This document shows, piece by piece, positions 4,167 to 56,433 of a stretch of 64,000 nt of DNA. Under the pieces are notes generated by a model. It saw only the letters and a list, made by a program, of their open reading frames with translations. It was not told the origin of the DNA and searched no databases. Each line of letters opens with the position of its first letter. Within the stretch, counting starts at the first letter, position 1. Source of the stretch: a virus; IMG/VR virus record IMGVR_UViG_3300045988_184219. The stretch is one strand, 5' to 3'. A program made the translations under genes and the position numbers.

Positions 4167-4748
4167 TCAAACGATAAGTGCTCCATTGGCGTCAAACGAA
4201 AGATTCAGCTTCTCAATGTACTTCACAACAGAATCATCATTGTTCATATTGTCTAAGAAAACACGCTTCGTCTTCTCGGCAACCTCCGCACAAGCCGCAT
4301 CAAACCACTGAACGAGTAGCGCCTCAATTTCCTCTTTGGCATACTCCTTACCATCCGCGACAACAATCACACCTTGGTCGAGAACGACAGAAGCACTCGT
4401 TTTATGACTCTTACTCCCGCCCTTAACTTCGATAGAGAGGATAGAATCGAGTCCTTCCTCTACTTCAAAGAAAATGAGATCGAGAAGGTTGTCAATATCG
4501 TCACCATCTTCTGCAAACACATAAAAGCGAGCAATATCTATTCCGCCATCAGGAAGGAAAGTCTTCTCTAACACAGAAGAACAAATATCCTCAACGGGAG
4601 CAAAGTTATCATCATAGGGAACATTCCAATAGTAACGCTCAACAATGTCATTCACATGAGAACGGTAGAACGGTGTCTTACGGACGTTCTCGATAGCGAG
4701 TTTCTGAGCGGATTCGCTCAAATCAGAAAAAGAAAAAGTTGTAGGCAT
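4167..4748 (-). CDS. paralog family C protein (193 aa)
   Basis: N-term FSFSDLSESAQKLAIENV and C-term YIEKLNLSFDANGALIV match the ~14-member family. Confidence 0.65.
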   Translation of the reverse strand: MPTTFSFSDLSESAQKLAIENVRKTPFYRSHVNDIVERYYWNVPYDDNFAPVEDICSSVLEKTFLPDGGIDIARFYVFAEDGDDIDNLLDLIFFEVEEGLDSILSIEVKGGSKSHKTSASVVLDQGVIVVADGKEYAKEEIEALLVQWFDAACAEVAEKTKRVFLDNMNNDDSVVKYIEKLNLSFDANGALIV

Positions 4749-7402: not shown

Positions 7403-7674
7403 CCACGCTATTTAAGATGCACCATTCCTTTGGTCTACCAATACAGACGCAACCAAAAACAAACATAAGTTCTAATAAACAAAAACAAAAAAACAACACA
7501 CCTGCAAAAGCAAGTGTGCCGTTTTTCTTCTCACCCAACAAGCCGCCCATCGCTCAGACACTCTGGGTTACGTCCCGCAAGGTATGTTACTACCATGCCG
7601 TCTGCAAAACACCCATTGTAAAAATCTTCTGCGCTTTGATGGATTTTCGCAAACAAGTCGAACATTTTGGTCTG

Positions 7675-9598: not shown

Positions 9599-10189
9599 TT
9601 AATGCGCTTTTTCCCACGTATGTGTCATACGAACGACACACCTGTGGAAAATATCTGCCAGAAGCTTAAGTAACATCTGTTCAAACTCTTTGTAAAATAA
9701 AAGGTCTACAACAGGAACACATTCCTTTGGTATATCCCAATCAATAGCATCCTTAACATCAGAAAAACCTGTGCTCACAGAAGCAGAAAATTCTATACAA
9801 TGACAAGATGGAGCGTATTTGGAAACAAGCTCTACATCGTCATAAACCATATTAAACAATTTTTTAACTTGTCGATCATTTTTTGATTTAAAAGAAGCCT
9901 TAATAAACATTTGTTCATCATCATCATAACGATATTCTACAGAAATTTTACGGCAAAGAGACTCCCCGAACATATCCGCAAGATACCTTTGTGCCGCTCC
10001 AAATGTTTCTCCCCAACAGTGTCTCTTCCACTCTTTTGTACACCTAAAATCACGCAAAATACGTTCTTTATCGATGTCTGGGAGTTGCTTGAATCTACGA
10101 ATCGGTTCCTCTAGTGGAAACTCTTCGGGGAGTTGAAATTGAGGTGTGTATGGGTGTTTGTGTGTTTGGGATGTGTTTTGTGTTGACAT
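9599..10189 (-). CDS. hypothetical protein (196 aa)
   Basis: Long ORF; promoter with TATAAT at 10275-10295; SD GAAAGGA. Confidence 0.55.
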   Translation of the reverse strand: MSTQNTSQTHKHPYTPQFQLPEEFPLEEPIRRFKQLPDIDKERILRDFRCTKEWKRHCWGETFGAAQRYLADMFGESLCRKISVEYRYDDDEQMFIKASFKSKNDRQVKKLFNMVYDDVELVSKYAPSCHCIEFSASVSTGFSDVKDAIDWDIPKECVPVVDLLFYKEFEQMLLKLLADIFHRCVVRMTHTWEKAH

Positions 10190-28698: not shown

Positions 28699-28716
28699 AC
28701 TGACACTACAAAATTT

Positions 28717-29644: not shown

Positions 29645-29689
29645 AGTTGTACCTTTGCCTTTCTTTTGCAGAAAAATTTTCTCGGAGAT

Positions 29690-31384: not shown

Positions 31385-32338
31385 TTACTTAATCAAATCA
31401 GCTCCAACGATAATCCCATTACCACCAACAATCTTAGGAAGCTCACCATTCCACTTTTCAATTCGTCTCTGCTCAATAACGCTCTGTGTCAAAGACTGTT
31501 GTAGCTTATAGTTCGCGGCCGACTGACCGTCAGCCTGAATGATAAGCGCATCCGACTCACCTTTTGCCTTAATCCGCGCAGTCTCAGCTTCAACTTCTGC
31601 CCGCTCCTTCTCGATCTTCGAGCGTTCAAGTTCATTTTGTGCGTTGACAACATTTTGAATTGCCTGAGCCGTCGCCTCGTCAGGGACAACATCCGAGAGG
31701 TTGAACGTCTCAATCACGATTCCGTAAGGCAATAAACTATCACGAAATTTTTCAAAGATTTTTGTATTAACATCAGGACGCTTATCTCCAACAAGTTCCA
31801 TAAGAGAATATTGAGATGTCACGTTGTTGACAGCCTCATACATTGAGTTTTTCATATACCCCGATTCAATCAACTCTATTTTCTGTCCTCGGAACTTCTC
31901 AAACACACGCGGGAGTGTTTCTACATCCATGTGATACGAGTAAGTGATAGAGACGTTGACCTGCTTACCATCTTTGGTGTTGACGTTAATCGAGCGATCT
32001 GTTTTCTCTGTCTCATTCCCCTTGGTATAGTAGACGGTCTCTGTCGAAATCGGATAGGAGGTTACGTGCTTCCAAGGCGCAACAAGGTGAAATCCCTGCG
32101 CCAAAGTTTCTCCCTCAATCCCTCCATCCATGTTGTACACAACTCCTGCGTAACCGGGGTTGATACGACACGTACAAGTGAACAAGACTATTACACCTAG
32201 GAGTAGGGCGACAGTCACACCTATGATTCCTGCCGCACGAGACTTCAACGCTACGATTTCAGTAGAGAGATGTTCTTTAGAGTTTGATGGAGTGAAATTA
32301 GAGTTATTTTTGTTACCGAATATCATCTTGAATATCAT
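31385..32338 (-). CDS. SPFH/band-7 (prohibitin/HflK-like) membrane protein (318 aa; start at MIFKMIFG)
   Basis: N-terminal TM IIGVTVALLLGVIVLF, SPFH core, Ala/Glu-rich coiled coil ERAEVEAETARIKAKGESDALIIQADGQSAANYK. Confidence 0.7.
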   Translation of the reverse strand: MIFKMIFGNKNNSNFTPSNSKEHLSTEIVALKSRAAGIIGVTVALLLGVIVLFTCTCRINPGYAGVVYNMDGGIEGETLAQGFHLVAPWKHVTSYPISTETVYYTKGNETEKTDRSINVNTKDGKQVNVSITYSYHMDVETLPRVFEKFRGQKIELIESGYMKNSMYEAVNNVTSQYSLMELVGDKRPDVNTKIFEKFRDSLLPYGIVIETFNLSDVVPDEATAQAIQNVVNAQNELERSKIEKERAEVEAETARIKAKGESDALIIQADGQSAANYKLQQSLTQSVIEQRRIEKWNGELPKIVGGNGIIVGADLIK

Positions 32339-32461
32339 TCCTTCCAATGAATTTGTTAAACGTTTTTTGAATGAAAAGTGTTGCGGATTTTCCATAGCGA
32401 ATACATAAGTAGACCCATAAGACAAACAATGTAACAACGAGGATGATAGCAAAGCCTCGCA
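32312..32461 (-). CDS. possible small membrane peptide (49 aa, MRGFAIILVVTLFVLWVYLCIRYGK...) upstream of the SPFH gene
   Basis: ATG 32461 preceded by strong SD AGAAAGGAAG; one TM helix; below the ORF-track size cutoff. Confidence 0.35.
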
Positions 32462-32809
32462 TAGTGCAATCTTCCTTTCTTTGAGAGATTTTTTATTTTG
32501 AAAGATATTTCTATGATAGCACTTTTTAGTGTGATTTTGGAGGTAAAAATTGTAGGCATTTGTTAGATGCAAAAAGAACGCCCAATTAAGGACGCTCCGT
32601 TTGCAGATTGTTTTTTAGAAAGGAGGCGATGCTTTCAATCACCCTAAACCAACAAGAATTTTACGTGTCAGCTTGGTCAAGCATCGTAGGGTGTTTCCTG
32701 ACTTCTTTGACAGTATAACTGATAGTTAAGTTCCACGATGAAGTTTTTGTTTTTACGTGGATTTTTTTTGATAAGCCAAAGAAAAGGTTGCAAGGAACGT
32801 TTCGGTGCA

Positions 32810-33214: not shown

Positions 33215-33559
33215 TTATGTGGTCTGAGCTAACTTCGCCATTTCAAGATACGATAACACAGTCGTCATCACCTGTTTTGAGGAATCCTCGGCGACCGAGA
33301 ACGGCGACCCTGCCCAATAATCCTCGTTTAAGGCTTGATTAAGGGCGAAATGCGCAAGCTTCTTTCCATGACGGAGCTTTCGGAAGTCCGAGATTCTCCA
33401 TACATAGACGATCAACCCAGCCCGGATGCGCTCTAACTTCTTTTTGTAGAGTCCGCGCATTTGCTCGTTGTCGTAATTGTTGATGTACTTACGCTTTTCT
33501 GAGTGGTAGCGCGTCAACCACATATCGAACTCCTCAAAACTATCAATCAAAACATCCAT
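33215..33559 (-). CDS. paralog family G protein (114 aa)
   Basis: KKKLERIRAGLIVYVWRISDF matches KKLARIRAEIVIYVWRVLGF in 45210..45567. Confidence 0.6.
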   Translation of the reverse strand: MDVLIDSFEEFDMWLTRYHSEKRKYINNYDNEQMRGLYKKKLERIRAGLIVYVWRISDFRKLRHGKKLAHFALNQALNEDYWAGSPFSVAEDSSKQVMTTVLSYLEMAKLAQTT

Positions 33560-35942: not shown

Positions 35943-36293
35943 TTAGTCAAGTCCCGCCGCCATCCGAGCGACATCGAGGTAGGACTCAGCCTCAGAGCAA
36001 AAACGACGATAGATTTCAAGCATAGAATCATCCACGTCATCATCAAGAGAAACCTCACGGTTCTCATTACACTCAACAGCTTCCCAAACGCGGTCAAAGA
36101 TGCGACGACCATTCGGGAGTTCAGCAAACGCAGAATTTCCGAACACATTGTCACGCGCACAAGCCATTTCGTAGCACTGACGATCAGTCATCTCGCGCAG
36201 AGAGATTCCACTACGACGGATTTCCTCAACCTTCTCATCGACGAAAATCATAATATCTTCCACATCGCGAACCATAACATTCTTCTTGCTCAT
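35943..36293 (-). CDS. hypothetical protein (116 aa)
   Basis: SD AAGAAAGCGGAGGAA before ATG 36293. Confidence 0.55.
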   Translation of the reverse strand: MSKKNVMVRDVEDIMIFVDEKVEEIRRSGISLREMTDRQCYEMACARDNVFGNSAFAELPNGRRIFDRVWEAVECNENREVSLDDDVDDSMLEIYRRFCSEAESYLDVARMAAGLD

Positions 36294-36499: not shown

Positions 36500-37232
36500 T
36501 AAAAAATGAAAACGCCCTGCGACAAGCACAGGACGTTCTCTCGAACACTTTCCACACAATAAGTCACGGGATCATCCCCCTCGGGATTCAACGGCAACTC
36601 ATTGTACTGCAACCACCGATGTTCACACGGCTGGTATCATCATCCTCGCGCCCCACAACGAGGAAACCACAAGATTTTGGGGCAATATTTGACGGCACTC
36701 GCACCACCTCTAGCCACGCGTGATTTGCAGTTACGAGCGACTTGTCGGGACGTATCTTCGCGGCGGGGTCAACGGGTGTTATGCCCTCTCCCACCATCCA
36801 GTCCACCATCCACTCCTCTTGTGCGTGGTTAGCCGTCATGAGGTCTTTGCGACGTAATGTATGTTATCAGCCGTAGTTTAGGGAGATTGCACTCCGAATC
36901 AGTCTATCACATCGGACGTTTACCCGCCATCATGGTTGCTTCTCCTCTCTAGGTCTTTCAAGCTCTTTTTTCAAAGTAGGGCTGTTTCCCGCTTATCCGA
37001 ATTCTCGCGAAGCCCTTATATCACCCGCCGCACCCCACCATCGGAGTACGTCTAGCACGCGGGGATTTTAACATTGTTTAGGCGGTCGAGGTTGCTCGCG
37101 GAGGTCGATTTCCACGTCCTCGGGAGAGACTCTCAACAGGTGTCTAGCGTTCCTCATGTGCGCCGCTTTAGCTGCGCGGAGTTGCGTCAACCTGCCTGAG
37201 CCGCCTACCAACTTTTCGTCGGTGTCCCTCTC
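36500..37232 (-). ncRNA. candidate large (~730 nt) structured ncRNA, copy 2
   Basis: Paralog of 6436..7155: shared blocks GGTTAGCCGTCATGAGGTCTTTGCGACGTAAT and GTCTAGCACGCGGGGATTTTAACATTGTTTAGGCGG; promoter box 37238-37250; terminator 36510-36545. Confidence 0.5.
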
Positions 37233-37365
37233 GATGGTTTTATTATAGCAGGTTCAAACGAGAATGTGGAGAATTTTTGTTGAGTCGAAGGTTTTTCTTT
37301 TTCGAGAGAGGTGGGAGGTGTCGGGAACCAGTTTCTTTGGCTTATCCTATCCGACTTAACCGACT

Positions 37366-37394
37366 ATGACGGGCGACTTTCCAGACTACATAAT
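37366..37394 (+). promoter_or_regulatory. sigma-70-like promoter on + strand (TATGAC-18-CATAAT)
   Basis: Related to 7375 and 58868; downstream ~85 nt conserved with the 58897 region. Confidence 0.45.
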
Positions 37395-37825
37395 CCACAC
37401 CATCTCAGACAAACCTTTCCCTTGGTCTATCCACAAAAAAACGGCGCACCTGCCACATAACGAGCACGCCGAAATAGTTTCAAAACCCATACACAAATGT
37501 GACAAGGTTAAGTTTGCAGAGCACCGAACGCTTGACTGAGGAGCGCCCGAAGGTTCTCCACGCGTTCACGAACGGGTCATACTGGCGCAACTACGACGCC
37601 CCTACACGCGCACTTTCTTACGTTTCTGCACGCTTACTTTTGCGAGTTTTTATACTCCGACTTTTCTCGTTTGTCGCGCATACCGTCCCATCCTTCTTTT
37701 CGACAAGGCGAACTCGCTTGCGTTTAGTATAACAAAACTTTGCTCGTTTGTCAATAAAAATTTACGTTTGTTTAATGGTTAAGTGAAGTTTTACAATACG
37801 CCTAACAACAAACAATCCCCTTGGT

Positions 37826-38419
37826 TTATCCATTCCGCTCATCCACTTCGTAAATCATTCGTCCATCTTCCGTATAGTCCATGTCCAACTCCTCAAGGTG
37901 CGCCCGAATAGATTCGTCCGAGAAATATTCTTTTGCCTTCTCCTTTACATATCCTTCTGCAAAGTGACCAATAAGGCTCATAATACCCGACACAACATCT
38001 TCCAGTGCGACCAAATCAATCTCTTTCATAGTAAGAGAACATTCGATTCGTCCAGAAGAAAAACCATCCATGTAGATAGCGTCTAAACCAAGAACGTCTC
38101 TCTCATCAAAACTGAACTGCACACGATCCTTGAGTTGCGAGCGAACAAAGTCCTTGAGATCATCTTCGTCTGTACTCTGCAACCGAACCATGACGGAAGG
38201 AATCGGATAATCGTCTTCAATCGACCAGCGGAACGCACTGAACATAGGTTCGATACGAAGAACACTGTATAAGAGTCGGAATCGCTCACATATCGCATCC
38301 TTCACATCAAGACTGATCTTATCAAGTACAGTATCAAGATACCAAACGGAGCGAAACGCTTCCATAATCGCCGTTTTCTGGGCGTCAGGAGAAAGATTTG
38401 TAAAGCTGATTTTCTGCAT
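37826..38419 (-). CDS. paralog family C protein (197 aa; start at MQKISFTNLS)
   Basis: SD GAAAGGAAGGAAAATC; N-term FTNLSPDAQKTAIMEAF; C-term HLEELDMDYTEDGRMIYEV. Confidence 0.65.
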   Translation of the reverse strand: MQKISFTNLSPDAQKTAIMEAFRSVWYLDTVLDKISLDVKDAICERFRLLYSVLRIEPMFSAFRWSIEDDYPIPSVMVRLQSTDEDDLKDFVRSQLKDRVQFSFDERDVLGLDAIYMDGFSSGRIECSLTMKEIDLVALEDVVSGIMSLIGHFAEGYVKEKAKEYFSDESIRAHLEELDMDYTEDGRMIYEVDERNG

Positions 38420-38481
38420 GATTTTCCTTCCTTTCAAAGAGAAAACGGCATATTTTCTTCTATATGCCGTTTCTCATAACC

Positions 38482-39054
38482 TCAAATTTCTTCTTCCGCA
38501 ATCATCCCATCTTCGTAGCACTCAAGATCATTGTTCGCAAGCCAACGTCCGACCTCATAATCAGAGAAATAGTGGTTGATTGCCCCCTGCGCCGCCCTCT
38601 GTGCGTGCTCGCCGATGCGTTTTATAATATGCACAAGTTCTGTTTCCATACGCTCAATAGTTGTGTCCGAGAGACCAGCATAAGCCGTAACCTCAACACC
38701 AACAACCCCGTCGATGTAGCGTATTTTGAGGCGTTGAACGAGCTTGAGTTCGGTCTCCGTAGGAACACCAAAGGAGTCCTTACGAAGTGAAACACCGAGC
38801 CACTGTGCGACGTTCGAGGAGTCGATAGTGACGTTTGCAATAACAAGCGGGTTGCCTTCTGCATCATAACCATCGAACATAGGGCGAACCGAGCTTGAAC
38901 CTTCAGGGAGGCAGAAGGTTTCGTCGATGTCGAGCTCTGCGTCTTGCCGTGCGCTGTCGAGACTCATATTAAGATACTCTGTGCGGTTGCGGAGAGAGTT
39001 CCATGCGATGATGCGCTCATTTGCGCCGAGTTCGCTGTAATTTACTACTTCCAT
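38482..39054 (-). CDS. paralog family C protein (190 aa)
   Basis: C-term WLANNDLECYEDGMIAEEEI. Confidence 0.65.
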   Translation of the reverse strand: MEVVNYSELGANERIIAWNSLRNRTEYLNMSLDSARQDAELDIDETFCLPEGSSSVRPMFDGYDAEGNPLVIANVTIDSSNVAQWLGVSLRKDSFGVPTETELKLVQRLKIRYIDGVVGVEVTAYAGLSDTTIERMETELVHIIKRIGEHAQRAAQGAINHYFSDYEVGRWLANNDLECYEDGMIAEEEI

Positions 39055-39259
39055 TTTTTGTGTCCTTTCTGTTTGTCATTTGCTTAACCAACTCTTGATG
39101 GGTTTATTATATAACTTTTGAAACGATAGTGTATGTGTTTTTGTGTGGAGTGCGTAGAATATGCCAAAGGAAAAAATGGCGGTTGTCGATAGGTTTTGTT
39201 CCTGCCGAAGTGTACCGCCATCCGTTTTGTTCCTTTGGTTTATCTATTCGCTCAACAAA

Positions 39260-39838
39260 TTAAAGGACAATATTGCCATTCTTATCAAACTTTACACCAA
39301 CATGTAAGATGTAGTTCACAACCTCTTTATATGACATCAACTTTGCGTTCAGTTGAGCACTCTCGACATAGATTCGCGACACAACGGCAAGCATCCAATG
39401 CTTAATCATTCCCGCCAGTACCCCAAACGACACATCTCCAGCATCCTCGATTGCCAATTCTGCATAAAGATCACAATATACACCTTTTTTGTTGTAACCA
39501 AACGAGATTTTGTCGATAGCACCCGCATCAATAACGCAAGTGACACCTGTCAGAGCTGTAAGGCACTCAAGAAACTTTTCGATGTCATCATAATCCTCCA
39601 AAATGCCGTCAATAGATTGTGCGAAATATCCCCCCGTCATCTCCTCGCGGTCAAAAAACGCCTCAACAAGAGCAACATCTAAACCACGGAGAGATTTCTC
39701 ATATAGAACCTCGTCCACATAATCGCGAACCTTGTCACGCACAATCGCCTGATAGAAAGGTGTCTCTCTGACGTTCTTGACAGCGACTCCTTGAATGTCT
39801 GCTCGAAGGTCATTAAAATTAAAGACTTCTTTTTCCAT
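39260..39838 (-). CDS. paralog family C protein (192 aa)
   Basis: N-term FNFNDLRADIQGVAVKNV, C-term YILHVGVKFDKNGNIVL. Confidence 0.65.
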   Translation of the reverse strand: MEKEVFNFNDLRADIQGVAVKNVRETPFYQAIVRDKVRDYVDEVLYEKSLRGLDVALVEAFFDREEMTGGYFAQSIDGILEDYDDIEKFLECLTALTGVTCVIDAGAIDKISFGYNKKGVYCDLYAELAIEDAGDVSFGVLAGMIKHWMLAVVSRIYVESAQLNAKLMSYKEVVNYILHVGVKFDKNGNIVL

Positions 39839-39847
39839 TCTTATACC

Positions 39848-40393
39848 TCACTCAAATTCTTTCTTATCGAAAATTCGCCCTCGTCGCGTAAACACAATAT
39901 CGTGTTTTTTACAAAATCCAGAAACGCCTTCTTCACTACGCTCAAACTGAACAACTTTCAAAAGTCGAGCGCGAATACGGTCAATAACCTTGCTCAACCA
40001 AGTGCTAACATGTTCATGGAAACGCTCATTTTCATTCGTCGCGCCAAAAATTCCTTGTTCGCTATAACGCAACTCAATGGGAACAGAGGAAAACGAATCT
40101 TCTTCTCCATACTCAGAAATCTGTCTTAGAGCTGCAAGTTTCGACGGGTTTTTTGTACGGAAGATGCAAACGATAACAGGAATGTTCCATTCGTCTATAT
40201 CAGCACACAAACTCGCACAATTTGCAAGATCTTCTCCAACTTCTTCAGCGAACAGCCTCTCAAACAACTCGCCAAGATTTTCACTGACTTCTCGCTTCCA
40301 AAGATCATATCTCGCCACACTTTCTACCGCACAAGCACGCGGCAACTCGTCTAATTCCTCAAACAAGAAAACTCTAACGACAACTTCTCGCAT
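39848..40393 (-). CDS. paralog family C protein (181 aa)
   Basis: C-term FCKKHDIVFTRRGRIFD; 9-nt gap to the upstream gene. Confidence 0.6.
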   Translation of the reverse strand: MREVVVRVFLFEELDELPRACAVESVARYDLWKREVSENLGELFERLFAEEVGEDLANCASLCADIDEWNIPVIVCIFRTKNPSKLAALRQISEYGEEDSFSSVPIELRYSEQGIFGATNENERFHEHVSTWLSKVIDRIRARLLKVVQFERSEEGVSGFCKKHDIVFTRRGRIFDKKEFE

Positions 40394-40546
40394 TTCTTAA
40401 CCTTCTTTCCGAACAAAGATATATTTATATTATATAACTTTTTCACAAACACAAAACACAAAAAAACGAAGCGCGACAGCACTTTCTTCTATGCCACAAC
40501 GCTCCGTCTTAAACGACCTTTCCATTGGTCTATCTATTATTCCGAC

Positions 40547-41086
40547 TTATCCACATAAGCCAGAAATCATTTTTCCATTATTATTAAATCCAATATCATT
40601 CAAATAACAATATGATTCGATTTGTGAATCCTCCAACCTCCAAACAAAATCTCTCATAACTCGTGCTCGAATCAAATTCGCGGCATCGAGCAACCAATCA
40701 CCGACATATTCCCCGAACCTACTATTAGACAAAAGTTGCTCTGCGACAGGATCGGTACTTACAGAGATGGAAAGGTGGGTATTGGGTTCGACATATCCGC
40801 CATATCCAGTTATGCGACGAAGTTCTTTAATGTCGTTTTCTGTCTTTGCGTCCAAGATGAACGAAACGGCGATGTTGTTCAAATGAATTCGTTGAATATG
40901 TAGAGAAAGGAACGTTAGAGAATGACATCCTGTAACCTGTTCAAAAGCAATTTTCTCCAAAGAAGAAAGAGACTTGTCGAGAGAATCGAGGAAACTATGT
41001 GTTCCGAGAATTGTCTGACGTGCCTTTGCGCGTGCATATTCTGAGAGTTCGGAGAATGTGTAGAGCGTGGTTAAAACGGTTTGCAT
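40547..41086 (-). CDS. paralog family C protein (179 aa)
   Basis: N-term YTFSELSEYARAKARQTI, C-term YCYLNDIGFNNNGKMI. Confidence 0.65.
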   Translation of the reverse strand: MQTVLTTLYTFSELSEYARAKARQTILGTHSFLDSLDKSLSSLEKIAFEQVTGCHSLTFLSLHIQRIHLNNIAVSFILDAKTENDIKELRRITGYGGYVEPNTHLSISVSTDPVAEQLLSNSRFGEYVGDWLLDAANLIRARVMRDFVWRLEDSQIESYCYLNDIGFNNNGKMISGLCG

Positions 41087-41279
41087 GATTGTACTTCCTT
41101 TCTTTTTAATTAAGAACGAACAAGATTAAACGAGTTAATTATACGATAAAAAGAAATTATTTGCATTAGAAAAATAAAAAATAATTCAAAAGGAAGATTA
41201 TTTTACTCTGGAAAAACTTTGAACAAAAAAGACAACACACATTAAGTGTATTGTCTTTTTCTTGGAGCGTCAGGAAATA

Positions 41280-41813
41280 TCACAGATTCTTCCGCATCAT
41301 CCCGTCAGTTTCAAACTCAATGTCGTGAGTTAAGCAATAATCTGCCAACCCATCATCCGACAGATAACGTTCGAGATCCTCAACAACCCTATCTTTCACA
41401 GACCACGCAACATTGTCGAGATAGCGAGCGATCTGGGTCGAGCACTCGTCATCTGGAAACAAATGTGGGAGCATCGAGTCTGTAGCGACACGGATGTCAA
41501 TATCGCCAAAAAGCTCAACATTTTTGCCCCATCCAGAGACTTCTGCAAAACGCTGAAGCAGTGTCTTTGTGCCGATATGAGCGCGAAGATCAACCGATAC
41601 GCAGTCTCCTCCATAATAGAGACTCTGTACAGTCATCGCCTCCACGATCTCAGTAGGAACGACCCTACGGAGATGTGACTCCACTCTAACGTCAACAAAA
41701 CTGTTGGTGTTGATGACAAAATCTCTGTCATCAAGGATAGCCCTACGCGCTCGCGAACGATGCTTGTCGTCGAGCTCGTTGAACCGAAATAGAGAAATCG
41801 AAATAACACGCAT
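41280..41813 (-). CDS. paralog family C protein (177 aa; start at MRVISISLF)
   Basis: SD GGAAAGGAGAAAATACT; C-term YCLTHDIEFETDGMM. Confidence 0.65.
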   Translation of the reverse strand: MRVISISLFRFNELDDKHRSRARRAILDDRDFVINTNSFVDVRVESHLRRVVPTEIVEAMTVQSLYYGGDCVSVDLRAHIGTKTLLQRFAEVSGWGKNVELFGDIDIRVATDSMLPHLFPDDECSTQIARYLDNVAWSVKDRVVEDLERYLSDDGLADYCLTHDIEFETDGMMRKNL

Positions 41814-41947
41814 AGTATTTTCTCCTTTCCAATGAGAAAACCAATTAAAAAACTCTAGTAAAAGAATAACACATTTCACAAACCAACAAAAGAAAAAGAC
41901 GGTCAATCAACCGCCTTTTCTTAAACACTAACCTCTATTTCAATATG

Positions 41948-42622
41948 TCACATAGAGCACGACAACCAATCCTTAATCATCATCCGACAATTCTTGTCAT
42001 CTACTTGCGGGAGAATATTAGAGCGAAGGCGCATAACACCCGCGAGCATCTCATAGACAACATCATCGTCATCAGAGGTCAAAACTCCCTTTGAAAGTCG
42101 CTGTTCGATTTCCTCACTCAGCGAACGAATATGCCCGAGTATGTCCACATTTTCCTCGCGGTGTGTCTCAAAATCAAACGAACACTCCTCCTTACCAGTA
42201 AGGAACTCGTTTTCAGTGATCTCACCGTCAAGAATCATACGAACAATCGTGTGCTCAAACTCATTAAGAATGTCATACACAATCTTGTCACGAAGCTCCT
42301 CTGTAGTCAGACCAGACGTTGTAAGAAGCGCCTCAACACCATTATCCAAAATTGACTTGGCGATTTTATTCGTGTAAGTGAAGAATCCAAGTTCAAGCGT
42401 CTTGTTATGGAGGAGGAAAACTTCGACACGACGACGCTGAACACCATTTCGGAGCTTTGTGTAGTCCTCAAGTGTAATATCGCCGATGTAGACCTTTGCC
42501 GCTGCGTCTACTTTGTCGATAGGTGGCGGGGCGGTGAGAGCGTCACGGAGTCCAGAAATTGTAAATGTGGATTCCGCCGAAATGTCTGCATTCCAAAGGG
42601 CTGTGTGGATGGATTGGATCAT
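41948..42622 (-). CDS. hypothetical protein related to family I (224 aa)
   Basis: RMILDGEITENEFLTGKE resembles EAMLDGYLTEDEFF in 58987/59744 genes. Confidence 0.55.
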   Translation of the reverse strand: MIQSIHTALWNADISAESTFTISGLRDALTAPPPIDKVDAAAKVYIGDITLEDYTKLRNGVQRRRVEVFLLHNKTLELGFFTYTNKIAKSILDNGVEALLTTSGLTTEELRDKIVYDILNEFEHTIVRMILDGEITENEFLTGKEECSFDFETHREENVDILGHIRSLSEEIEQRLSKGVLTSDDDDVVYEMLAGVMRLRSNILPQVDDKNCRMMIKDWLSCSM

Positions 42623-42764
42623 GTTGACTGTCCTTTCTTTGATAGGTGTTTAACATTTTTAATAGAATAACATAGTTTTTAATGTTTTGCAGAGTGTTTT
42701 GATAAACCAAAGAAAAAGATGTGTCGATAGGACTTCTTACCTATCGACACACTCACTTACCCCA

Positions 42765-43409
42765 TCATCTCGTAGCCTTTCCCCACGAGTGACGCAAAGC
42801 CGTAATGACCATGTTCTCGTAATAACTGTACCATGACGAAAACTCCTCAAAGTCCCAGTGGTTGCACATCACATTGTCAACACTCTCAACCACATGATCG
42901 TGCAACTTCTTTCCATAGGAGATTTCCGTGAAACGTGAGTTGTTGTAAAGCATCGAAAGAAACTTCTTGGCGTTCTCAACCTTACTCCATCCTTCTTCGC
43001 ACTCACTGAACTCAGCGATAACGTGGTAGGGGATGTTCATAGTGTAAGTGCCAATGTCATCTGGAAAGCCCTTCCCAGCAGAAATTCCAAGCGCGACCGA
43101 AACAAGATCTTCAAACTCGCAGAACCACTCATACACATCGATCCAACTGCACATATCGCCAGCTTCGTCGATAGCGCACGAGAATACATTTTCGAAAATC
43201 TCGCGCCCATGCTCCTCATAACGGAAGTCAGAGTTCTCAAAGATAAGATCCTTCACCTCGTCTTGAATCGCATCCAGCTTATTGAGGTATTCCTTCAATG
43301 CCGACTCACGCTCAGGCGAGCCAAATGGGAAATCTTCGGAGATGAACTGAACTTCGTCTTCGCGGGCATCAAATGTGCGGAGAATGTCATTTGAAATAGG
43401 ATTATGCAT
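42765..43409 (-). CDS. hypothetical acidic protein (214 aa)
   Basis: SD AGAAAGGAAAATGTAGC before ATG 43409. Confidence 0.55.
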   Translation of the reverse strand: MHNPISNDILRTFDAREDEVQFISEDFPFGSPERESALKEYLNKLDAIQDEVKDLIFENSDFRYEEHGREIFENVFSCAIDEAGDMCSWIDVYEWFCEFEDLVSVALGISAGKGFPDDIGTYTMNIPYHVIAEFSECEEGWSKVENAKKFLSMLYNNSRFTEISYGKKLHDHVVESVDNVMCNHWDFEEFSSWYSYYENMVITALRHSWGKATR

Positions 43410-43476
43410 GCTACATTTTCCTTTCTAATTCATAAAATCATTAAAGATTTTAATAAAAAACGGTAAATTTCATTAT

Positions 43477-44823
43477 TCACGCGGACTCCCGACGAGGCGA
43501 GTCTGTTGGACGAGCAGCCAAACCAGCACAGGCGATCCTTGTCGGCGCTACCATAATCGGGCGTAGCACAACGCCCTCTATCCCGTCGGCAAACGCGTTC
43601 GGGACTACTTTTTTCACGATCTGCAACGCTCCGTTTACGTCCGCATTCACGCGTGTTCCGTCGTTTGAACGGAATAATCCTCGATGAATACGACGCTTTT
43701 TGTTGTAAAATTCGCGTGTCGGGGGCTCTCCGTCCAGAAATGATGTACCGCTCGTATAGCTTTCTTCTGTTACGACAACAGCTATACCATGTTCATACGC
43801 TTTGTACTCGATCATTTCTATCAATCGGGCGAACGGGAGTCCTACAAAATGCTGGTTCTCCTTCGCCGTGAACGGGGTGCGCTCCTTCCAGTCGCGGTTT
43901 AGACCAATGATAAGTGTCGGAATATTCTGTGCGACGAGGCGATCTACGATGAGGCGCGAGGTCTTGTGCAGGTAATCCTTGAGTTTTGCGTTCCTTTTGT
44001 CAATCAGGCGTTGGATTCTCCGCGTCACTTTCCTCCCATTGAGGTGCTCCGACATCTCACGGAGAGACGCCAAACGCTTGTTGTAGAACTGGTTGATCGA
44101 CTTCGGGATGCGACCGTTTACGATGATCGGAGCGTCCCCCGTGGAGAACGCCATCGTAACGAAGTTGTTTACGCCGAGGTCAATTCCTGCGTATCTCCCG
44201 TTGGGCTTTCTCTGAGGAACTTCCTTGATTCTGTAAACGATTTCAAGGGTGATGAACCCTCCGTGCGGGACAAATCGAACCTGTTGAAACGACTTTATTT
44301 CACGAGGGCTGTTAGTGTCCTCGCGGATGAACTGCGGCTCAACCGTGAACCCCTTGAAAACTTTTGGAAACACGATTTTTCCATCCCGAATTTTACACTC
44401 TTGACTCGTTAAAGTTAGAACGTGCTTTCCATCCTTCTTTAGAAAATGAGGCGGTTTCGGACGACCCTTATACTTTTCAGGGTGCTTTTTCCAATCTTTA
44501 AGTTCTTCCCAAAAACTTTTCCAGTCTGTCACGAGCAAGCGTAAATTCTGCTGTGCGCTCTGTGCCGTCGGCATGTTCCGATAGTCGGGAAAGTCCGTTT
44601 TCGACTTCAGGATTTTGTCAAGTTGTTCATAACTCGACTGTTTCTCGTGCGCGAAAAACTGTTGCCGAAGTAGATAATTCCCTTGATTATAAAGGTTTTT
44701 TGACATGTGACAAAACTCCGCGAGCATTTCATACGCGGGGTGAGTCTCCTTGATGATGTGTTGCTCCACGCGAACAAAGGGATCTTTCTTTTTCTTCGTT
44801 TTTGGCTTTTCTTCCGTTTTCAC
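43477..44823 (-). CDS. TnpB-derived protein lacking zinc finger and RuvC-II Glu (possible nuclease-dead, TldR-like)
   Basis: RuvC-I GIDLGVNN present, DYLHK block aligns with the intact TnpB, RuvC-II position reads IIGLN (no Glu), YTSGTSFLDG replaces the CxxC zinc finger, NADVNGALQI retained; ~200 aa N-terminal extension; standard cassette promoter at 44878-44900; only 67 nt to the next gene. Confidence 0.6.
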   Translation of the reverse strand: MKTEEKPKTKKKKDPFVRVEQHIIKETHPAYEMLAEFCHMSKNLYNQGNYLLRQQFFAHEKQSSYEQLDKILKSKTDFPDYRNMPTAQSAQQNLRLLVTDWKSFWEELKDWKKHPEKYKGRPKPPHFLKKDGKHVLTLTSQECKIRDGKIVFPKVFKGFTVEPQFIREDTNSPREIKSFQQVRFVPHGGFITLEIVYRIKEVPQRKPNGRYAGIDLGVNNFVTMAFSTGDAPIIVNGRIPKSINQFYNKRLASLREMSEHLNGRKVTRRIQRLIDKRNAKLKDYLHKTSRLIVDRLVAQNIPTLIIGLNRDWKERTPFTAKENQHFVGLPFARLIEMIEYKAYEHGIAVVVTEESYTSGTSFLDGEPPTREFYNKKRRIHRGLFRSNDGTRVNADVNGALQIVKKVVPNAFADGIEGVVLRPIMVAPTRIACAGLAARPTDSPRRESA

Positions 44824-45209
44824 TGGGACGTTCCTCCTTTCCAGTGTTCTCTTTGGTCTATTTAAGACGCAATCTCGATGTATTTATTATATAACTTTTC
44901 GACAGACCAAAAGGAGAAATCGGCACGTATCGCAAGTTTTCTTTTTTAACAATACATGCCAACTTCGACCGATTCCTCCACACGCCTAAAGACGGGGGCT
45001 TTCTCGGCGTTTGTGGTGATGTTTTCGGTAGGGTAGCGCATAATCGGCATTATTCTTCCTCCTTGTAGAAGACAATGTTTTCGACAGGATGTCGTTTGAT
45101 GTGTTTATTATATAGCTTTATAGATGAAGATGTGCGGGTTTTATGTTTTTTGGAATAAGAAAAATAGACCAAGAGGATTAGTTACAACATTTCCTTTGGT
45201 CTATTTTTA

Positions 45210-45567
45210 TCAGGCAGCCTTCTCAGCGAACGCCGCATCCTGCGCCATCACCATAAGTCGCTCTATGGTAATGACACGCTTCAAAAACTCTTCCGCACCA
45301 ATCTCATCGCCATCATAATTCACCCCGAATAAGAAATACTTGCTAAGAACGGAGCCAACCGCCTTATAAGCCAAAAACTTCCCTCTCGCGAGAGAGTGAA
45401 ATCCAAGAACTCGCCAGACATAAATGACTATCTCTGCACGAATACGGGCGAGCTTCTTCTCATAGATAGCCACAACCGAATTATCGGTGATATGGTTAAT
45501 CAACTCTCTCTGGTTTATCCAGTAGGAGGAAAGAGCCGACTGAAGATCCTCATAGTTACCAATCATA
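45210..45567 (-). CDS. paralog family G protein (119 aa; start at MIGNYEDLQ)
   Basis: SD AAGGAAAGGATGG before ATG 45567. Confidence 0.6.
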
Positions 45568-45697
45568 GAAAACCATCCTTTCCTTAGAAACAAACAACTC
45601 AATTTATGTATTTATTATATAACATTTTCGATAACTAGAAAGAGAAAACGAGTGTTGCAACAGTTTTTCTTTTTGCTCCCAAACTTATTCAAAACGC

Positions 45698-46189
45698 TTA
45701 AACTTTTCCGTAGTTGTTGACGATCTTCTCCACCTTATTTTGAATCTGCACCATCATCTTGAGCAATCCACAGTAGATGTAGTCATGCGCCTTCACCAAG
45801 TCTGTATCATCAACATCCGCCTCAACCTCTACCATCACGCTCCCGTTCGAGTAGATGGCAAAAACATCCTTTACGTTCTCTAACACATAAACAGGAAGAG
45901 GAATGTTCGTGTACTTGCGGACACCATAAAGAACCGAACGAGCACATTCCTCCTCAAACTCCGTGTTGATATGAATTGCGAGGCTGATGTTATCCATCGA
46001 ATTCCAAAGACCATCCAAACTCTGCCACTTAAGGCTGTTCTTCCACCCGAGGTGAACCTCTATCTCGTCTTCGGTGAGAGAAGGGAAAACTCCCGCAAGA
46101 ACCTTCTCGATGTACTTGTGCCCCTCACAAAGCGCCGCCTCAAGCTGCGTGCAATCACGGAATTCACCATAATTTTCCATTTTGTACAA
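45698..46189 (-). CDS. hypothetical protein (163 aa)
   Basis: SD AAAAGAAAGG before ATG; cassette block 46215-46240. Confidence 0.55.
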   Translation of the reverse strand: MYKMENYGEFRDCTQLEAALCEGHKYIEKVLAGVFPSLTEDEIEVHLGWKNSLKWQSLDGLWNSMDNISLAIHINTEFEEECARSVLYGVRKYTNIPLPVYVLENVKDVFAIYSNGSVMVEVEADVDDTDLVKAHDYIYCGLLKMMVQIQNKVEKIVNNYGKV

Positions 46190-46274
46190 ACCTTTCTTTT
46201 AAAACCGACTAAACTCCATTGATATATTTATTATATAACTTTTGCATACGAAGATAAGAAAAACGAGCAGACTC

Positions 46275-46849: not shown

Positions 46850-48121
46850 TTAAACAGGTAGCAATCTTCTTCCTCCATACGCTTTTAACTGTGGATAGAC
46901 AGGCTTAGACAAGAAACAATTTTTCAAACGCCACTCAGACTCGCCGTCTTTGAGTACCAAACGGGTTCGACCAGATAAAAACGTCTCAGAATTATATCCC
47001 TCTACAGAAGGGAGCCCCTCAATAAATAACTCAAAATCGGAACCTTTAAACTTCTTATCCCGAACCAAGGAACAAAACAAAAGTTCAGCCTCCACATAAT
47101 AGTGCGTAGAAAGAAGATCCTTATTACGTTCAAAAAACTCAGCAGAGAATGCACGCCACCCATCACAATTCCGCAAACGGTGAACCGTTGCTTGACTGCA
47201 TAAAGTTCCGTAACTCAACCCAAAATCTTTTGCAAAGACAGGGAGCTCCATTACGGGAATTTTACGACCATCCTCATGTATCAACACCCAACGGCAAGAA
47301 CGCTCTTTTTTCTTCTTTGTAATGCGTTTAACAAAGTGACAAGATTCAAGCCCCCACTCAGAGCCTTTTTCTTTCAAGGAAAGTTTAATCTTTTTACGGA
47401 AGAAGGAGTCATCATATCCTTCGATTTTACGAAAATCACGAATAAAAGCACCAACCTGCGACCATTCGGGAGAACGATTTTTCATCCTGCGCCATAAAGC
47501 GTAAACAGTAGAATAAAGGTATCGGCGCAAACGACCATTTTTCCAAGCCTTAAAGTCTTCTGGATATTCTTTATTTTGATAGATAGAATCATCAAGACCA
47601 ATTTCCCCAAAATCTTCGTAAAGCTCATAAAGCCTGTAAACGAAATCCATACCGACATTCAGTGGATTTTTCATTCGCGTATATATCAAGTTACTGTCAA
47701 TATAATCCATAACGATTGCAAGACGTTCTTCTTTTGTCGTTTCTATCGCATCTCTCGCCTGTTTGCGTGGAAAATCTTGAAAACTACTTCGCTTCATATA
47801 ACGAACCCATGCACGAAGGGTTTCTACACGAGAAATATGATGTTTTTTGCACACATCACTCAAACTCATGCCAGAAAGGACATCCTCTACCGCACACTTT
47901 TTCTCATCAAAAGAAAATCGGGCGCGTGAAGGATAGAGAAATTCCTCATCGCTCTCACACAACTCATAAATCTTAATCCAAGACTGAATTTGTTGATAAC
48001 GAATTCCATGTTCTTGAGCAAAAGAAGATAAAGATTGTTTTCTTTTCTTTGCTTCGAGGATAATTTTTAACTTGTACTCATTAGAAACGCGCATCCTCTT
48101 TTTTTGAACTTTATCAGACAT
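46850..48121 (-). CDS. HTH-domain protein with transposase-OrfA-like N-terminus and large unknown C-terminal region (423 aa)
   Basis: Two HTH-like segments (LSSFAQEHGIRYQQIQSWIK; LSDVCKKHHISRVETLRAWVR); SD AGAGGTG before ATG 48121. Confidence 0.5.
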   Translation of the reverse strand: MSDKVQKKRMRVSNEYKLKIILEAKKRKQSLSSFAQEHGIRYQQIQSWIKIYELCESDEEFLYPSRARFSFDEKKCAVEDVLSGMSLSDVCKKHHISRVETLRAWVRYMKRSSFQDFPRKQARDAIETTKEERLAIVMDYIDSNLIYTRMKNPLNVGMDFVYRLYELYEDFGEIGLDDSIYQNKEYPEDFKAWKNGRLRRYLYSTVYALWRRMKNRSPEWSQVGAFIRDFRKIEGYDDSFFRKKIKLSLKEKGSEWGLESCHFVKRITKKKKERSCRWVLIHEDGRKIPVMELPVFAKDFGLSYGTLCSQATVHRLRNCDGWRAFSAEFFERNKDLLSTHYYVEAELLFCSLVRDKKFKGSDFELFIEGLPSVEGYNSETFLSGRTRLVLKDGESEWRLKNCFLSKPVYPQLKAYGGRRLLPV

Positions 48122-48141
48122 AATCAATACACCTCTGAACC

Positions 48142-48424: not shown

Positions 48425-49045
48425 TCAATCATCAACAATCTCTCCATCCTCGCAACACATAACGTTGCGCTCAACAAGGTACGCGTGTATGGTAGCACGG
48501 TAGTACGAATCGAGCACAAAATCCTCAGAAACCTTCTGTGCGATGACATCAATCTTTCTAGCATATCCCGTCAGGATATTCTGTATCTCTGCGATTGTTT
48601 CGTCCTCCAACCCAGCACATGCTTCAACCTTAGCGATACACACACCACCGATTGCGCGGATTGTAACAGACCGAATGAGTTTGAGTTCGAATTCGTTGCG
48701 AACTCCCAAAAAGCGAAACTGCGAAAGAAAGTTCACAATCGCATCCTCTTGGTCTATTGAGATTGCGAGGGAAGAAATGACATGCGGGATATTATATCGG
48801 TCAAACTCCTCAAAAAGCACCTTAGATCGCACGAAAGACTCATTGATGGAACAACGAGAAACGATTGCGTTTGCGACGCATTCAGCCGCATTTTTGAGTT
48901 GTTCTTGTAGGTAGTCCAGACTCTCGCGCAAATTGTACTGCGCCATAATTTGTGCATCCTCCGATAGTTGTGTGTAGGGCACGATAACATCGTCCTCGGG
49001 CATCCAGTTTTCGTCGTCTGTGTATTTGTCTGTCATACCTATCAT
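48425..49045 (-). CDS. paralog family C protein (206 aa)
   Basis: N-term YTQLSEDAQIMAQYNL, C-term YLVERNVMCCEDGEIVDD. Confidence 0.65.
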   Translation of the reverse strand: MIGMTDKYTDDENWMPEDDVIVPYTQLSEDAQIMAQYNLRESLDYLQEQLKNAAECVANAIVSRCSINESFVRSKVLFEEFDRYNIPHVISSLAISIDQEDAIVNFLSQFRFLGVRNEFELKLIRSVTIRAIGGVCIAKVEACAGLEDETIAEIQNILTGYARKIDVIAQKVSEDFVLDSYYRATIHAYLVERNVMCCEDGEIVDD

Positions 49046-55896: not shown

Positions 55897-56433
55897 TTAA
55901 CCGACAATAGATCCGTTTTCAGTGAAAACCGTATCGAACTCTTGGAAGTAGTCGATCACACATTCATCAGAGTACAACTCCTCAAACCACTTAGGCAAGA
56001 GCTCTGTGTTAAGTTTGTTGATGAAACTCTCAAAAACCGCAAAAACCCGTCTTTCGATTTCCTTTGTGTCGCCATTGTCACAACGCACAGAAATCTCTAC
56101 GCGCCCGTTCTCACGAAACTCGAACTCAATATCCCGAACATTAAGGCTCTTTCGCCAGTCACCGCCAACGAGATCATAAATCTCGCGGTAGTCACTTATA
56201 GACGTTGCACTCCCCTTGAGATGTCGAACGTGAACACGAGGAACACCACCAACAAACTCTGGTTCAGAGAGAGCGAAATCGAATAGACGACGTGAGATTG
56301 GAGACTCCTCAAACACTCGTTCACGTACCATATCGCGAGAGCGTCGGTAGTAGAAGCCACCAGCCTTCATATTGTCAAGAACACGACGTTGAATATCGGG
56401 TGAGAGTCCCGAAAACGAAACAAGATTTTCCAT
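55897..56433 (-). CDS. paralog family C protein (178 aa; start at MENLVSFSGLS)
   Basis: SD GGAGGATGTTTT before ATG 56433; C-term FQEFDTVFTENGSIVG. Confidence 0.65.
   Translation of the reverse strand: MENLVSFSGLSPDIQRRVLDNMKAGGFYYRRSRDMVRERVFEESPISRRLFDFALSEPEFVGGVPRVHVRHLKGSATSISDYREIYDLVGGDWRKSLNVRDIEFEFRENGRVEISVRCDNGDTKEIERRVFAVFESFINKLNTELLPKWFEELYSDECVIDYFQEFDTVFTENGSIVG

Follow-up and report, generated by a model that had tools for sequence, protein, structure and literature searches.

A motif-less, multicopy branch of the phage and plasmid family PHROG 5162/10310 in a giant mobile element of the human microbiome

Introduction

ArdA/Ocr-type DNA mimics are small, acidic, stand-alone proteins carried on first-entering plasmid or phage DNA. 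A different arrangement is found in ASFV MGF360/505, where many old, diverged paralogs are clustered in strain-variable regions of a very large virus. A third system, the family PHROG 5162/10310, is widespread in phages and plasmids and uncharacterised; it has no Pfam model, NCBIfam model, solved structure or assigned function.

Here we describe a multigene family found in 64,000 nucleotides of IMG/VR record IMGVR_UViG_3300045988_184219; this whole stretch is referred to as the window. The carrier is a mobile element of 145–409 kb, classed as viral by IMG/VR, from human-associated metagenomes. The family resembles ArdA/Ocr in that its members are small, acidic and stand-alone, and in that relatives adjoin ArdC-like, DUF932 and RadC genes; its net charge of -5 to -20 per ~190 aa, however, is the less extreme of the two. 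No Pfam match to ArdA or to any other antirestriction model was found, and no ArdA/Ocr protein was among the PDB fold neighbours. The likeness to ASFV MGF360/505 is by analogy only and would concern the multigene layout, since the two families have no sequence or structural relationship. Homology does exist with PHROG 5162/10310, of which the window copies are a motif-less, divergent offshoot.

Results

Tandem and dispersed copies of one family

An earlier, sequence-only reading of this DNA had proposed a single family with six genes in a row. All 12 of the coordinates that it named correspond to minus-strand ORFs of 177–206 aa, which find each other when the 190 window ORFs are searched iteratively with an HMM, and six of them do lie in tandem on the minus strand at 37826–41813. 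Four further copies form a second cluster at 55897–58652 (minus strand). The members, the doubtful candidates and an example of the associated promoter-like motif are as follows.

41280..41813, minus strand: member A, opening the six-gene array; 177 aa; reading frame continues to 41906, with a ribosome-binding site at the ATG at 41813
40547..41086, minus strand: member B; 179 aa; missing from the related IMG/VR contig L012
39848..40393, minus strand: member C; 181 aa; missing from related contigs L003 and L004; own promoter-like motif at 40425–40440
39260..39838, minus strand: member D; 192 aa; starts 9 nt past C; missing from L003 and L004
38482..39054, minus strand: member E, the modelled copy; 190 aa; promoter-like motif at 39102–39117
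37826..38419, minus strand: member F, closing the array; 197 aa when read from the ATG at 38419; no promoter motif of its own
4167..4748, minus strand: dispersed member; 193 aa; adjoins a C5 DNA methylase gene
48425..49036, minus strand: dispersed member; 203 aa; nearest paralog of member E (26% identity)
55897..56433, minus strand: member, second cluster; 178 aa
56549..57148, minus strand: member, second cluster; 199 aa
57325..57945, minus strand: member, second cluster; 206 aa
58074..58652, minus strand: member, second cluster; 192 aa
63664..64000, minus strand: member truncated by the window end; its L017 ortholog is full length (183 aa) and has the N-terminal motif
9599..10189, minus strand: degenerate candidate; external HMM E 2.8e-6 over profile positions 11–159 only; lacks the C-terminal motif
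45698..46180, minus strand: weak candidate with neither terminal motif; leave-one-out E 2.4e-4; no external HMM match
7531..7665, minus strand: 44-aa remnant of the C-terminal motif, probably a pseudogene, within an ORF-poor, repeat-rich stretch
39102..39117, minus strand: promoter-like 16-mer AAGTTATATAATAAAT, example copy upstream of member E

The window thus holds at least 13 copies, two candidates that are degenerate and one probable pseudogene remnant, and two more members lie immediately past its end in contigs L016–L019. The starts listed by the ORF-calling tool are probably too far upstream for four ORFs, in which ATGs preceded by a GAAAGGA-type ribosome-binding site give 38419, 49036, 57945 and 46180. 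Members C and D are probably co-transcribed, because D starts so soon after C.

Membership was examined with profiles built in two ways. When each of the 14 recruited ORFs was left out in turn, 12 came back at E<=1e-6, accompanied by hardly any outsiders; ORF 45698 was recovered weakly and ORF 57325 failed. An HMM made from non-window relatives only gave full-length matches to 13 window ORFs (E 6e-19 to 1e-7), and these include ORF 57325 (E 1.8e-10), despite its leave-one-out failure. This external HMM matched none of the control sequences, 1,200 shuffled and 12 reversed versions of members, so the similarity is not compositional, which the sequence-only reading had named as one way in which the family might dissolve. 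The other way, that its members come from unrelated known families, is likewise contradicted, as they form one family that branches from PHROG 5162/10310.

A divergent offshoot of PHROG 5162/10310

Searches of the family against Pfam, NCBIfam and PADLOC gave no matches. The profile search proposed earlier yielded nothing from Pfam but hundreds of relatives elsewhere, which belong to the wider family PHROG 5162/10310. Among 93 wider relatives, 72 match phrog_5162 (best E 6.7e-52) and 53 match phrog_10310. The window proteins themselves, when scanned directly with hmmscan, reach the PHROG models only marginally (E 0.008 and 0.001). Alignment of profiles with hhalign joins the window alignment (A1) to that of the canonical family (A3) at 97.8% probability and E 7e-13 over 171 columns. 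An exhaustive search of the wider family gave 259 clusters at 50% identity, and relatives are present in 235 records of phages and 90 of plasmids.

The two groups share homology over the full length of the profile, a size of ~190–200 aa, acidity and a matching predicted order of helices and strands. The terminal motifs of the PHROG family, YxFxELSxxAxxxAI (N) and SDExhxxxhxxNxxEFxxDG (C), match those of the window copies, hxFxELSxxAQxxAI (N) and SDxxhxxYLxxNDhxFxxDG (C), and in both the window and the wider sets the elements (Y/h)xFxELS...A and NxxEFxxDG supply most of the best-conserved columns. They differ in what lies between. In the canonical alignment L14 of the N-terminal motif is invariant, as are G61, F62, Q65, G66, D67 and G68, and Trp35 and Y114-x-H116 are nearly so; the window copies, in contrast, lack the GFxSQGDGAxF loop, the conserved Trp and the YxH motif. 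All but two of the 113 canonical proteins contain xQGDG (111 of 113). The element is missing from all 41 proteins closely related to the window copies, and the HMM alignment shows it in none of the window members themselves. In the same alignment the members have no conserved Trp or His at the Trp35 and H116 columns, although the Tyr column is partly kept. Copy number also differs, with at least 13 copies per 64 kb in the window against one or two places per record for the PHROG family among the listed phage hits, where the second place, if annotated, is within a terminal repeat (for example H19). Plasmid relatives occupy 95 places in the 90 records.

Other resources were less informative. A sequence profile search of the PDB with the family returned only noise, a BFVD search returned only uncharacterised phage proteins, and a literature search with the family's database labels, PHROG identifier and motif string found nothing relevant.

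Conserved termini, a diverged centre and the predicted fold

Mean BLOSUM62 column scores among the window paralogs bear out the description of conserved ends and a strongly diverged remainder: the N-terminal and C-terminal segments score 0.78 and 0.94 and are the sole conserved segments, all those between scoring <=0. Identity to the first sequence of the window alignment is 12–28%, and even the closest pair of paralogs reaches at most ~29%. Per-site variability of member A (20 sequences: 19 relatives and the window copy) is evenly distributed along the protein and is little informative.

Structure prediction, which had been suggested for these proteins, gave a confident AF2 model for member E (pLDDT 88.9, pTM 0.82), and a canonical-family copy was modelled with a pLDDT of 96.9. 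These two models have an identical order of helices and strands and identical weak PDB neighbours. Judging from the secondary-structure strings of the AF2 models, the N- and C-terminal strands would pair. The conserved termini are probably structural, the strand and helix of the N-terminal motif and the helix and strand of the C-terminal one together closing the fold. The centre of the protein, which in the parent family holds the invariant GFxSQGDGAxF loop and YxH, would then be free to diversify.

It may be asked whether the copies are merely very diverged and retain the ancestral PHROG 5162 activity, for example that of an enzyme or small-molecule binder at the SQGDG/YxH site. The full-length homology and matching helix/strand order are compatible with this, and the canonical G61, F62, Q65, G66, D67 and G68, with the near-invariant H116, suggest that the parent family does have a functional site. 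This putative site is nevertheless what the window copies and all 41 close relatives have lost: xQGDG is absent, the YxH position is unconserved and the central columns score no better than zero among paralogs, which makes retention of the activity improbable. No catalytic motif is recognisable in the window copies, as had been noted before.

Net charge ranges from -5 to -20 per window copy, against a canonical median of -19. Acidity is not distinctive in the window, because 80 minus-strand ORFs of >=110 aa, some overlapping shadow ORFs included, have a median pI of 5.4.

Purifying selection and strain variation

Selection was measured on orthologs, since synonymous sites are saturated between paralogs that share less than 30% identity. 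Twelve comparisons between related elements gave dN/dS values of 0.07–0.30, with a median of 0.12; neighbouring genes have a median of 0.13 (Mann–Whitney against the family, p=0.58). Each paralog is under purifying selection, and whole-gene dN/dS gives no sign of an arms race. No pair is closer than ~29% identity: the paralogs are old, individually conserved duplicates rather than a recently exploding array. The window region encodes real, selectively maintained paralogs of an acidic alpha/beta protein of ~190 aa.

What does change is the set of copies. Related elements carry 2, 4, 5 or 6 copies in the array, and the presence or absence of copies varies among relatives with 82–92% nucleotide identity, which supports a variable accessory multigene family. 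Of the interpretation offered earlier, the tandem arrangement and the strong divergence outside the termini are supported; the rapid divergence that it also assumed is not, the family evolving no differently from its neighbours.

Such gain and loss could also be expected if the copies were near-neutral baggage, each without a function, spread by recombination between the repeated promoter/leader sequences of a very large, gene-rich element. The dozens of near-identical repeats could drive unequal recombination, at least eight other small families in the window have expanded into paralogs, inter-strain gain and loss are frequent, and one remnant and two degenerate copies exist. Against this, each intact copy has a dN/dS of ~0.1 between strains, reading frames are intact and have ribosome-binding sites, and the paralogs, though ancient, have been maintained; we give the baggage explanation little credence.

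Genomic setting of the relatives

Plasmid relatives are located in leading or anti-restriction regions of alphaproteobacterial plasmids, where their neighbours are SSB, ArdC-like zincin, ParB-N, DUF932, RadC and strawberry-notch genes. The wider family also occurs in large and jumbo phages, and two phage lineages, PBECO4-like/Asteriusvirus-like and phiCbK-like, hold relatives within direct terminal repeats. An accessory or conflict-related role fits this placement beside ArdC-like, DUF932 and RadC genes and in terminal repeats.

RefSeq gives some plasmid and phage relatives the label ‘antitoxin of toxin-antitoxin stability system’ and others that of ‘YeeU-like antitoxin’, and one plasmid copy adjoins a Phd/YefM gene while another adjoins an AbiEii-type toxin gene. 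These labels and neighbours would suit antitoxins or immunity proteins. No HMM or fold match was found, however, between the family and CbeA/YeeU or Phd/StbD antitoxins. The window copies have no adjacent toxin gene, their neighbours being each other or unannotated small ORFs, and none of the 70 other window ORFs scanned matches a toxin family in Pfam. An antitoxin role is the least probable of the alternatives considered here.

Paralogous internal or ejected proteins are common in large phages, and a variable middle between conserved ends would suit a targeting signal. The copies might accordingly be virion-associated or injected proteins whose termini serve as packaging or processing signals instead of fold elements. 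That seems to us very unlikely, given that no structural genes are nearby, that the family is also found on conjugative plasmids, which have no virion, and that both termini are predicted with high confidence to lie within the globular fold.

Discussion

A candidate role in host takeover

The best explanation that we can offer, tentatively, is that the window proteins are a motif-less PHROG 5162/10310 offshoot with structural termini whose members are made early and bind host factors, the mechanism being assigned by guilt by association. They would act as non-enzymatic, stoichiometric binders produced soon after the DNA enters the cell. Each old paralog may be specialised for a separate host target—a component of a defence system or another target of host takeover—and the element would thereby hold a strain-variable repertoire of binders. 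As plasmids and jumbo phages carry the wider family in the DNA that enters the cell first, the copies are reasonable candidates for host-takeover or anti-defence proteins; in the carrier itself, early entry and early expression are conjectural, as the 64-kb window contains no phage hallmark or transfer gene.

A bolder version, which we consider rather unlikely as a whole, is that of a giant phage with a strain-variable library of 15–20 or more old paralogs on one ‘terminal-clasp’ scaffold, in which the ancestral loop has been replaced by diversified surfaces, each neutralising a separate host immunity or takeover target. If true, this would be the equivalent, in a virus of bacteria, of the multigene families known from large eukaryotic DNA viruses, and it would offer a first approach to the function of the widespread PHROG 5162 family. 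The parent family occupies genomic positions typical of anti-restriction and other establishment genes, and the window paralogs are a compact candidate panel for anti-defence or host-takeover screens. A scaffold multiplied into more than 12 conserved copies, with its invariant motif discarded, is also a natural experiment which separates fold-building from function-bearing parts. Even with another role, an almost wholly unannotated giant element of the human microbiome is shown to contain a multigene family and promoters of very regular architecture.

Organisation of the carrier element

Inocles, which have a GC content of 24–32% (PMC12340149), were rejected as the identity of the element, the window having ~44%. 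Window positions 37001–45000 gave no nucleotide match in a phage collection, and one window member gave no match by tblastn. The window also encodes an orphan C5 DNA methylase, a NADAR-domain protein and an SNF2 helicase. With the last of these as query, GTDB species genomes returned only matches of 27–30% identity and no close relative, and the family is absent from the 41-kb region round the best helicase match, which is located in an uncultured phage of 484 kb. An Rfam search of the window found nothing, and an IMG/VR scan for the promoter and terminator motifs yielded little beyond chance matches.

Nearly all genes of the carrier are on one strand, and at least eight further small paralog families are present within the window. 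The majority of small genes are individually equipped with a conserved -10-type promoter motif, and their ribosome-binding sites are strong; ribosome-binding sites also precede the family genes. The 16-mer AAGTTATATAATAAAT occurs 29 times, always on the coding strand, against 0.08 occurrences expected; copies also lie upstream of members 4167, 39848, 45698, 56549, 57325 and 58074. Promoter and leader repeats exist in dozens of near-identical copies. Terminator-like hairpins of the carrier genes are documented less well than the promoters and ribosome-binding sites; immediately upstream of member F, a hairpin followed by a T-run can be read by eye.

Family membership in the window

Six consecutive genes, members A–F of a family of ~190-aa acidic paralogs, fill the interval 37826-41813; the remaining members are named here by their start coordinates.

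Members of the tandem array
41280-41813, minus strand, member A
40547-41086, minus strand, member B
39848-40393, minus strand, member C
39260-39838, minus strand, member D
38482-39054, minus strand, member E
37826-38419, minus strand, member F

An iterative HMM search from a four-member seed converges on 14 of the 190 window ORFs. When each of the 14 is left out of the profile in turn, 12 still come back at E≤1e-6; the other two are ORF 45698, with a weak score (E 2.4e-4), and ORF 57325, which is not recovered. A profile HMM made from non-window relatives alone matches 13 window ORFs end to end (E 6e-19 to 1e-7), ORF 57325 among them. It also picks up a degenerate candidate at 9599-10189 (E 2.8e-6), but not one of the 1,212 control sequences, which were shuffled or reversed. 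The sequence-only reading had placed members at twelve coordinates, all of which are confirmed, and its count of about 14 is fair. Six-frame scanning also brought out a C-terminal remnant of 44 aa at 7531-7665. In the same scan the copy at 63664 proved to be truncated by the window end; its ortholog in the related contig L017 is full length (183 aa), and related contigs hold two more members just past the window end. Refined member starts are preceded by GAAAGGA-type ribosome-binding sites. This is a real, clean family that lends itself to experiments, and it bears on a widespread uncharacterised one.

Divergence and predicted fold

Window paralogs show 12–28% identity to the first sequence of their alignment, and no pair exceeds ~29%. 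Members A, B and C form one sub-group, as expected from local duplication. The closest paralog of E is the distant copy at 48425 and that of D the copy at 4167, so copies have changed position as well. All members are acidic (pI 4.3–5.5, net charge -5 to -20), as are most other window proteins.

Conservation among the paralogs is confined to both ends, with a mean BLOSUM62 column score of 0.78 in the N-terminal segment, 0.94 in the C-terminal segment and ≤0 between. Member E was modelled by AF2 with confidence (pLDDT 88.9, pTM 0.82); the predicted chain runs from a short N-terminal strand through two helices, a beta-hairpin, two short helices and a second hairpin to a long helix, a short helix and a C-terminal strand. 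The two conserved motifs correspond to the first strand and helix and to the last helix and strand of this model; since they coincide with these terminal elements, we infer that they probably close the fold.

Relation to catalogued families

The window copies have no match in Pfam, NCBIfam or PADLOC, and only marginal matches in PHROGs. Searching 1.84 billion representative proteins exhaustively with a profile gave 259 clusters at E≤1e-3, for the most part full-length proteins of ~200 aa. In an alignment of 93 sequences (92 relatives from this search plus member E), 72 match phrog_5162 (best E 6.7e-52) and 53 match phrog_10310, both of unknown function. Pfam gives no credible assignment for any of the 93: ten unrelated models hit one sequence apiece (best E 1.3e-4). 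Set against the profile of 117 canonical members, the PHROG 5162/10310 relatives, the window profile aligns across 171 columns with a probability of 97.8% (E 7e-13), and the homology is real.

The canonical proteins have invariant residues L14, G61, F62, Q65, G66, D67 and G68, the last six being the core of a GFxSQGDGAxF loop, and near-invariant W35 and Y114-x-H116. In the HMM alignment the loop, W35 and Y114-x-H116 are all missing from the window copies. The xQGDG motif is present in 111 of 113 canonical proteins versus none of 41 close relatives of the window copies, and is absent from 75 of the 130 best full-length matches to the window-type profile. With xQGDG lost from its members and their close relatives, the window family stands as a branch without the motif inside a larger family. 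The parent family is already catalogued in PHROGs, uncharacterised; what is new is this branch and its expansion to 13–16 or more copies in one element.

A tentative reading, possible rather than probable, is that the window paralogs are non-enzymatic binding proteins. Their production would start soon after entry, and every paralog would have a host target of its own, be it a defence component or another takeover target, with the conserved termini holding the scaffold together. Retention of the ancestral activity by the window copies is given lower weight than this binding role.

Where relatives occur

A canonical query matches 235 phage records, including PBECO4-type Escherichia and Salmonella jumbo phages, RaK2, K64-1 and rV5-like phages, and phages of Campylobacter, Acinetobacter, Bacillus and Caulobacter. 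In PBECO4-like and phiCbK-like phages the family gene lies within the annotated terminal repeats. The same query matches 90 plasmid records, mostly alphaproteobacterial. In the three plasmids examined the gene sits in a conserved block together with genes for an SSB or ArdC-like zincin, ParB-N, DUF932, RadC, DUF6878, a strawberry-notch or methylase-helicase protein and a toprim protein. Such a block is of the kind marking leading or establishment regions. Among explanations for the window copies, virion or injected proteins are considered less likely than early-made binding proteins.

Some relatives bear antitoxin names in RefSeq, and in five that were tested neither Pfam nor NCBIfam supports such a name. 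Three of the five are plasmid proteins that carry the name "antitoxin of toxin-antitoxin stability system", one is a K64-1 protein labelled "YeeU-like antitoxin" and one an E. coli plasmid protein annotated as hypothetical only. That the window copies are antitoxins is likewise weighted below host-target binding.

A canonical SQGDG-bearing member (E 5.9e-56) was also found at 9998-10639 of L141, a chromosomal 8.6-Mb bacterial contig, near a tyrosine integrase, an HNH nuclease and a PDDEXK nuclease. This member is likely to belong to an integrated mobile element, which would give the parent family a third type of carrier.

Window composition

GC content is ~44% across the window, and no tRNA genes were found in it. 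Almost all credible genes are on the minus strand, and GC skew is negative in 30 of 32 2-kb bins, the two exceptions lying at 26001-30000.

Recognisable genes
1831-2385, minus strand, AAA_33 kinase-like gene
4864-6210, minus strand, orphan C5 cytosine DNA methylase
23464-24621, 43477-44823 and 46850-48154, minus strand, two TnpB (OrfB_IS605 / Cas12f-like TNB) genes and one HTH transposase-like gene
27736-28359, plus strand, HTH_3 (Xre/cI-type) regulator
30223-30699, minus strand, NADAR-domain protein
31385-32572, minus strand, SPFH/Band-7 protein
52460-54193, minus strand, SNF2 helicase

Several of these gene types (methylase, NADAR, AAA_33, SNF2, SPFH) are associated with countering host defences. 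The HTH_3 gene is the only clear plus-strand gene; its surroundings (26000-30000) form an AT-rich dip (GC 0.35–0.40) where GC skew briefly flips sign, and may be a regulatory switch or module boundary. The TnpB and HTH transposase genes are interspersed among the paralog families and placed elsewhere in related contigs; they may contribute to rearrangements.

At least eight further small paralog families, all unannotated, lie on the same strand, and the entire window is a mosaic of multigene families.

Other paralog families (all minus strand)
1289-1567, 19087-19464 and 49239-49631
2582-3962
10819-11762
14629-18850, seven tandem members at 14.6–18.9 kb
24891-25826
33215-33559 and 45210-45602
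41948-42622, 54453-55064, 58987-59592 and 59744-60361
42765-43409, 35943-36293, 49660-50028 and 62703-63032

Among 50 other small window ORFs scanned, one has a Pfam match and four or five have PHROG matches (five families matched one ORF each, two of them the same ORF), all to PHROGs of unknown function. Non-coding repeats of 90–200 nt (62–94% identity) are common to ORF-poor stretches at 6850-8060, 22060-22442, 36965-37473, 58852-58974 and 62263-62620. Three copies adjoin family members or the family remnant. The repeats have no match in Rfam, and could be recombination sites, mobile-element remnants or uncharacterised RNAs.

Promoter-like motif and transcription units

With ≤2 mismatches allowed, the window has 29 occurrences of the 16-mer AAGTTATATAATAAAT, every one on the coding strand; chance alone would give 0.08. 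Many small genes have it upstream, among them members 4167, 38482, 39848, 45698, 56549, 57325 and 58074.

Example sites of the 16-mer
44882-44897, minus strand
46226-46241, minus strand
50052-50067, minus strand
54230-54245, minus strand
57202-57217, minus strand
58689-58704, minus strand

Downstream follow a conserved leader (..ATCRAnnGAGTTGTT..) and a strong GAAAGGA ribosome-binding site; upstream there is often a terminator-like hairpin with a TTTCCTTTGGyCTATC motif. The 16-mer is a -10-type promoter-like motif without a -35 element, and a generic sigma-70 scan misses its copies in the array region for that reason. The motif seems to define a single promoter class, specific to this element, from which dozens of single-gene units are transcribed. 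In a formal scan, terminator-like sites in the array region show no excess over shuffles (5 versus 3.8 expected). Most copies have their own promoter-like motif and, with motif, leader and ribosome-binding site before many of them, most members are thus transcribed as separate units. Within the array, D comes directly after C, and a hairpin lies between E and F.

Strain variation, selection and the carrier element

Copy number varies by strain. Related contigs (82–92% nucleotide identity) have unequal array content: all six members are present in the window, C and D are missing from L003 and L004, B is missing from the IMG/VR contig L012, and E and F alone remain in a 406-kb NCBI contig. L017, as far as sequenced, is without everything between window 58.9 kb and ~36.3 kb, a region of ~22 kb with the second cluster (four family copies at 55897-58652), the SNF2 helicase, transposases and the six-gene array. 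At the junction (L017 12962-18000 versus window 58987-36300) a 201-aa gene is followed by ~1.2 kb of unmatched sequence with two small ORFs and then by genes near window 36 kb, which shows large-scale plasticity of the region. Two further contigs of the same lineage (L139 and L140; 44.4% GC) have the same promoter motif and members not in the window.

Between strains, paralog dN/dS is 0.07–0.30 (median 0.12, 12 ortholog comparisons) and the median for neighbouring genes is 0.13 (35 comparisons; p=0.58). Every intact paralog is under purifying selection between strains; near-neutral baggage is accorded less weight than a binding role. Member A is unusually polymorphic (62–98% identity among 20 sequences, 19 relatives and the window copy), with no indels and with variation spread evenly along the protein. 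Rapid divergence, as suggested by the sequence-only reading, is not borne out by these medians. Its arms-race framing has partial support from the genomic context and from gain and loss of copies, but none from substitution rates. Overall, the paralogs look ancient and constrained one by one, with copies entering and leaving a hypervariable accessory region, and not like the product of recent duplication and fast divergence.

The carrier element is read as a huge phage. The best phage match of the SNF2 helicase is in a 484-kb uncultured phage (40% identity), with no family member found near that match. No phage hallmark gene was seen among the window genes, and the carrier may instead be a megaplasmid or phage-plasmid. 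Identity with Inocles was rejected, their GC content being 24–32% (PMC12340149) versus ~44% in the window. Exact or near-exact copies of window proteins occur in metagenome assemblies only, on contigs reaching 393–409 kb, with one of 145 kb in IMG/VR; several record names of these contigs point to Human Microbiome Project samples.
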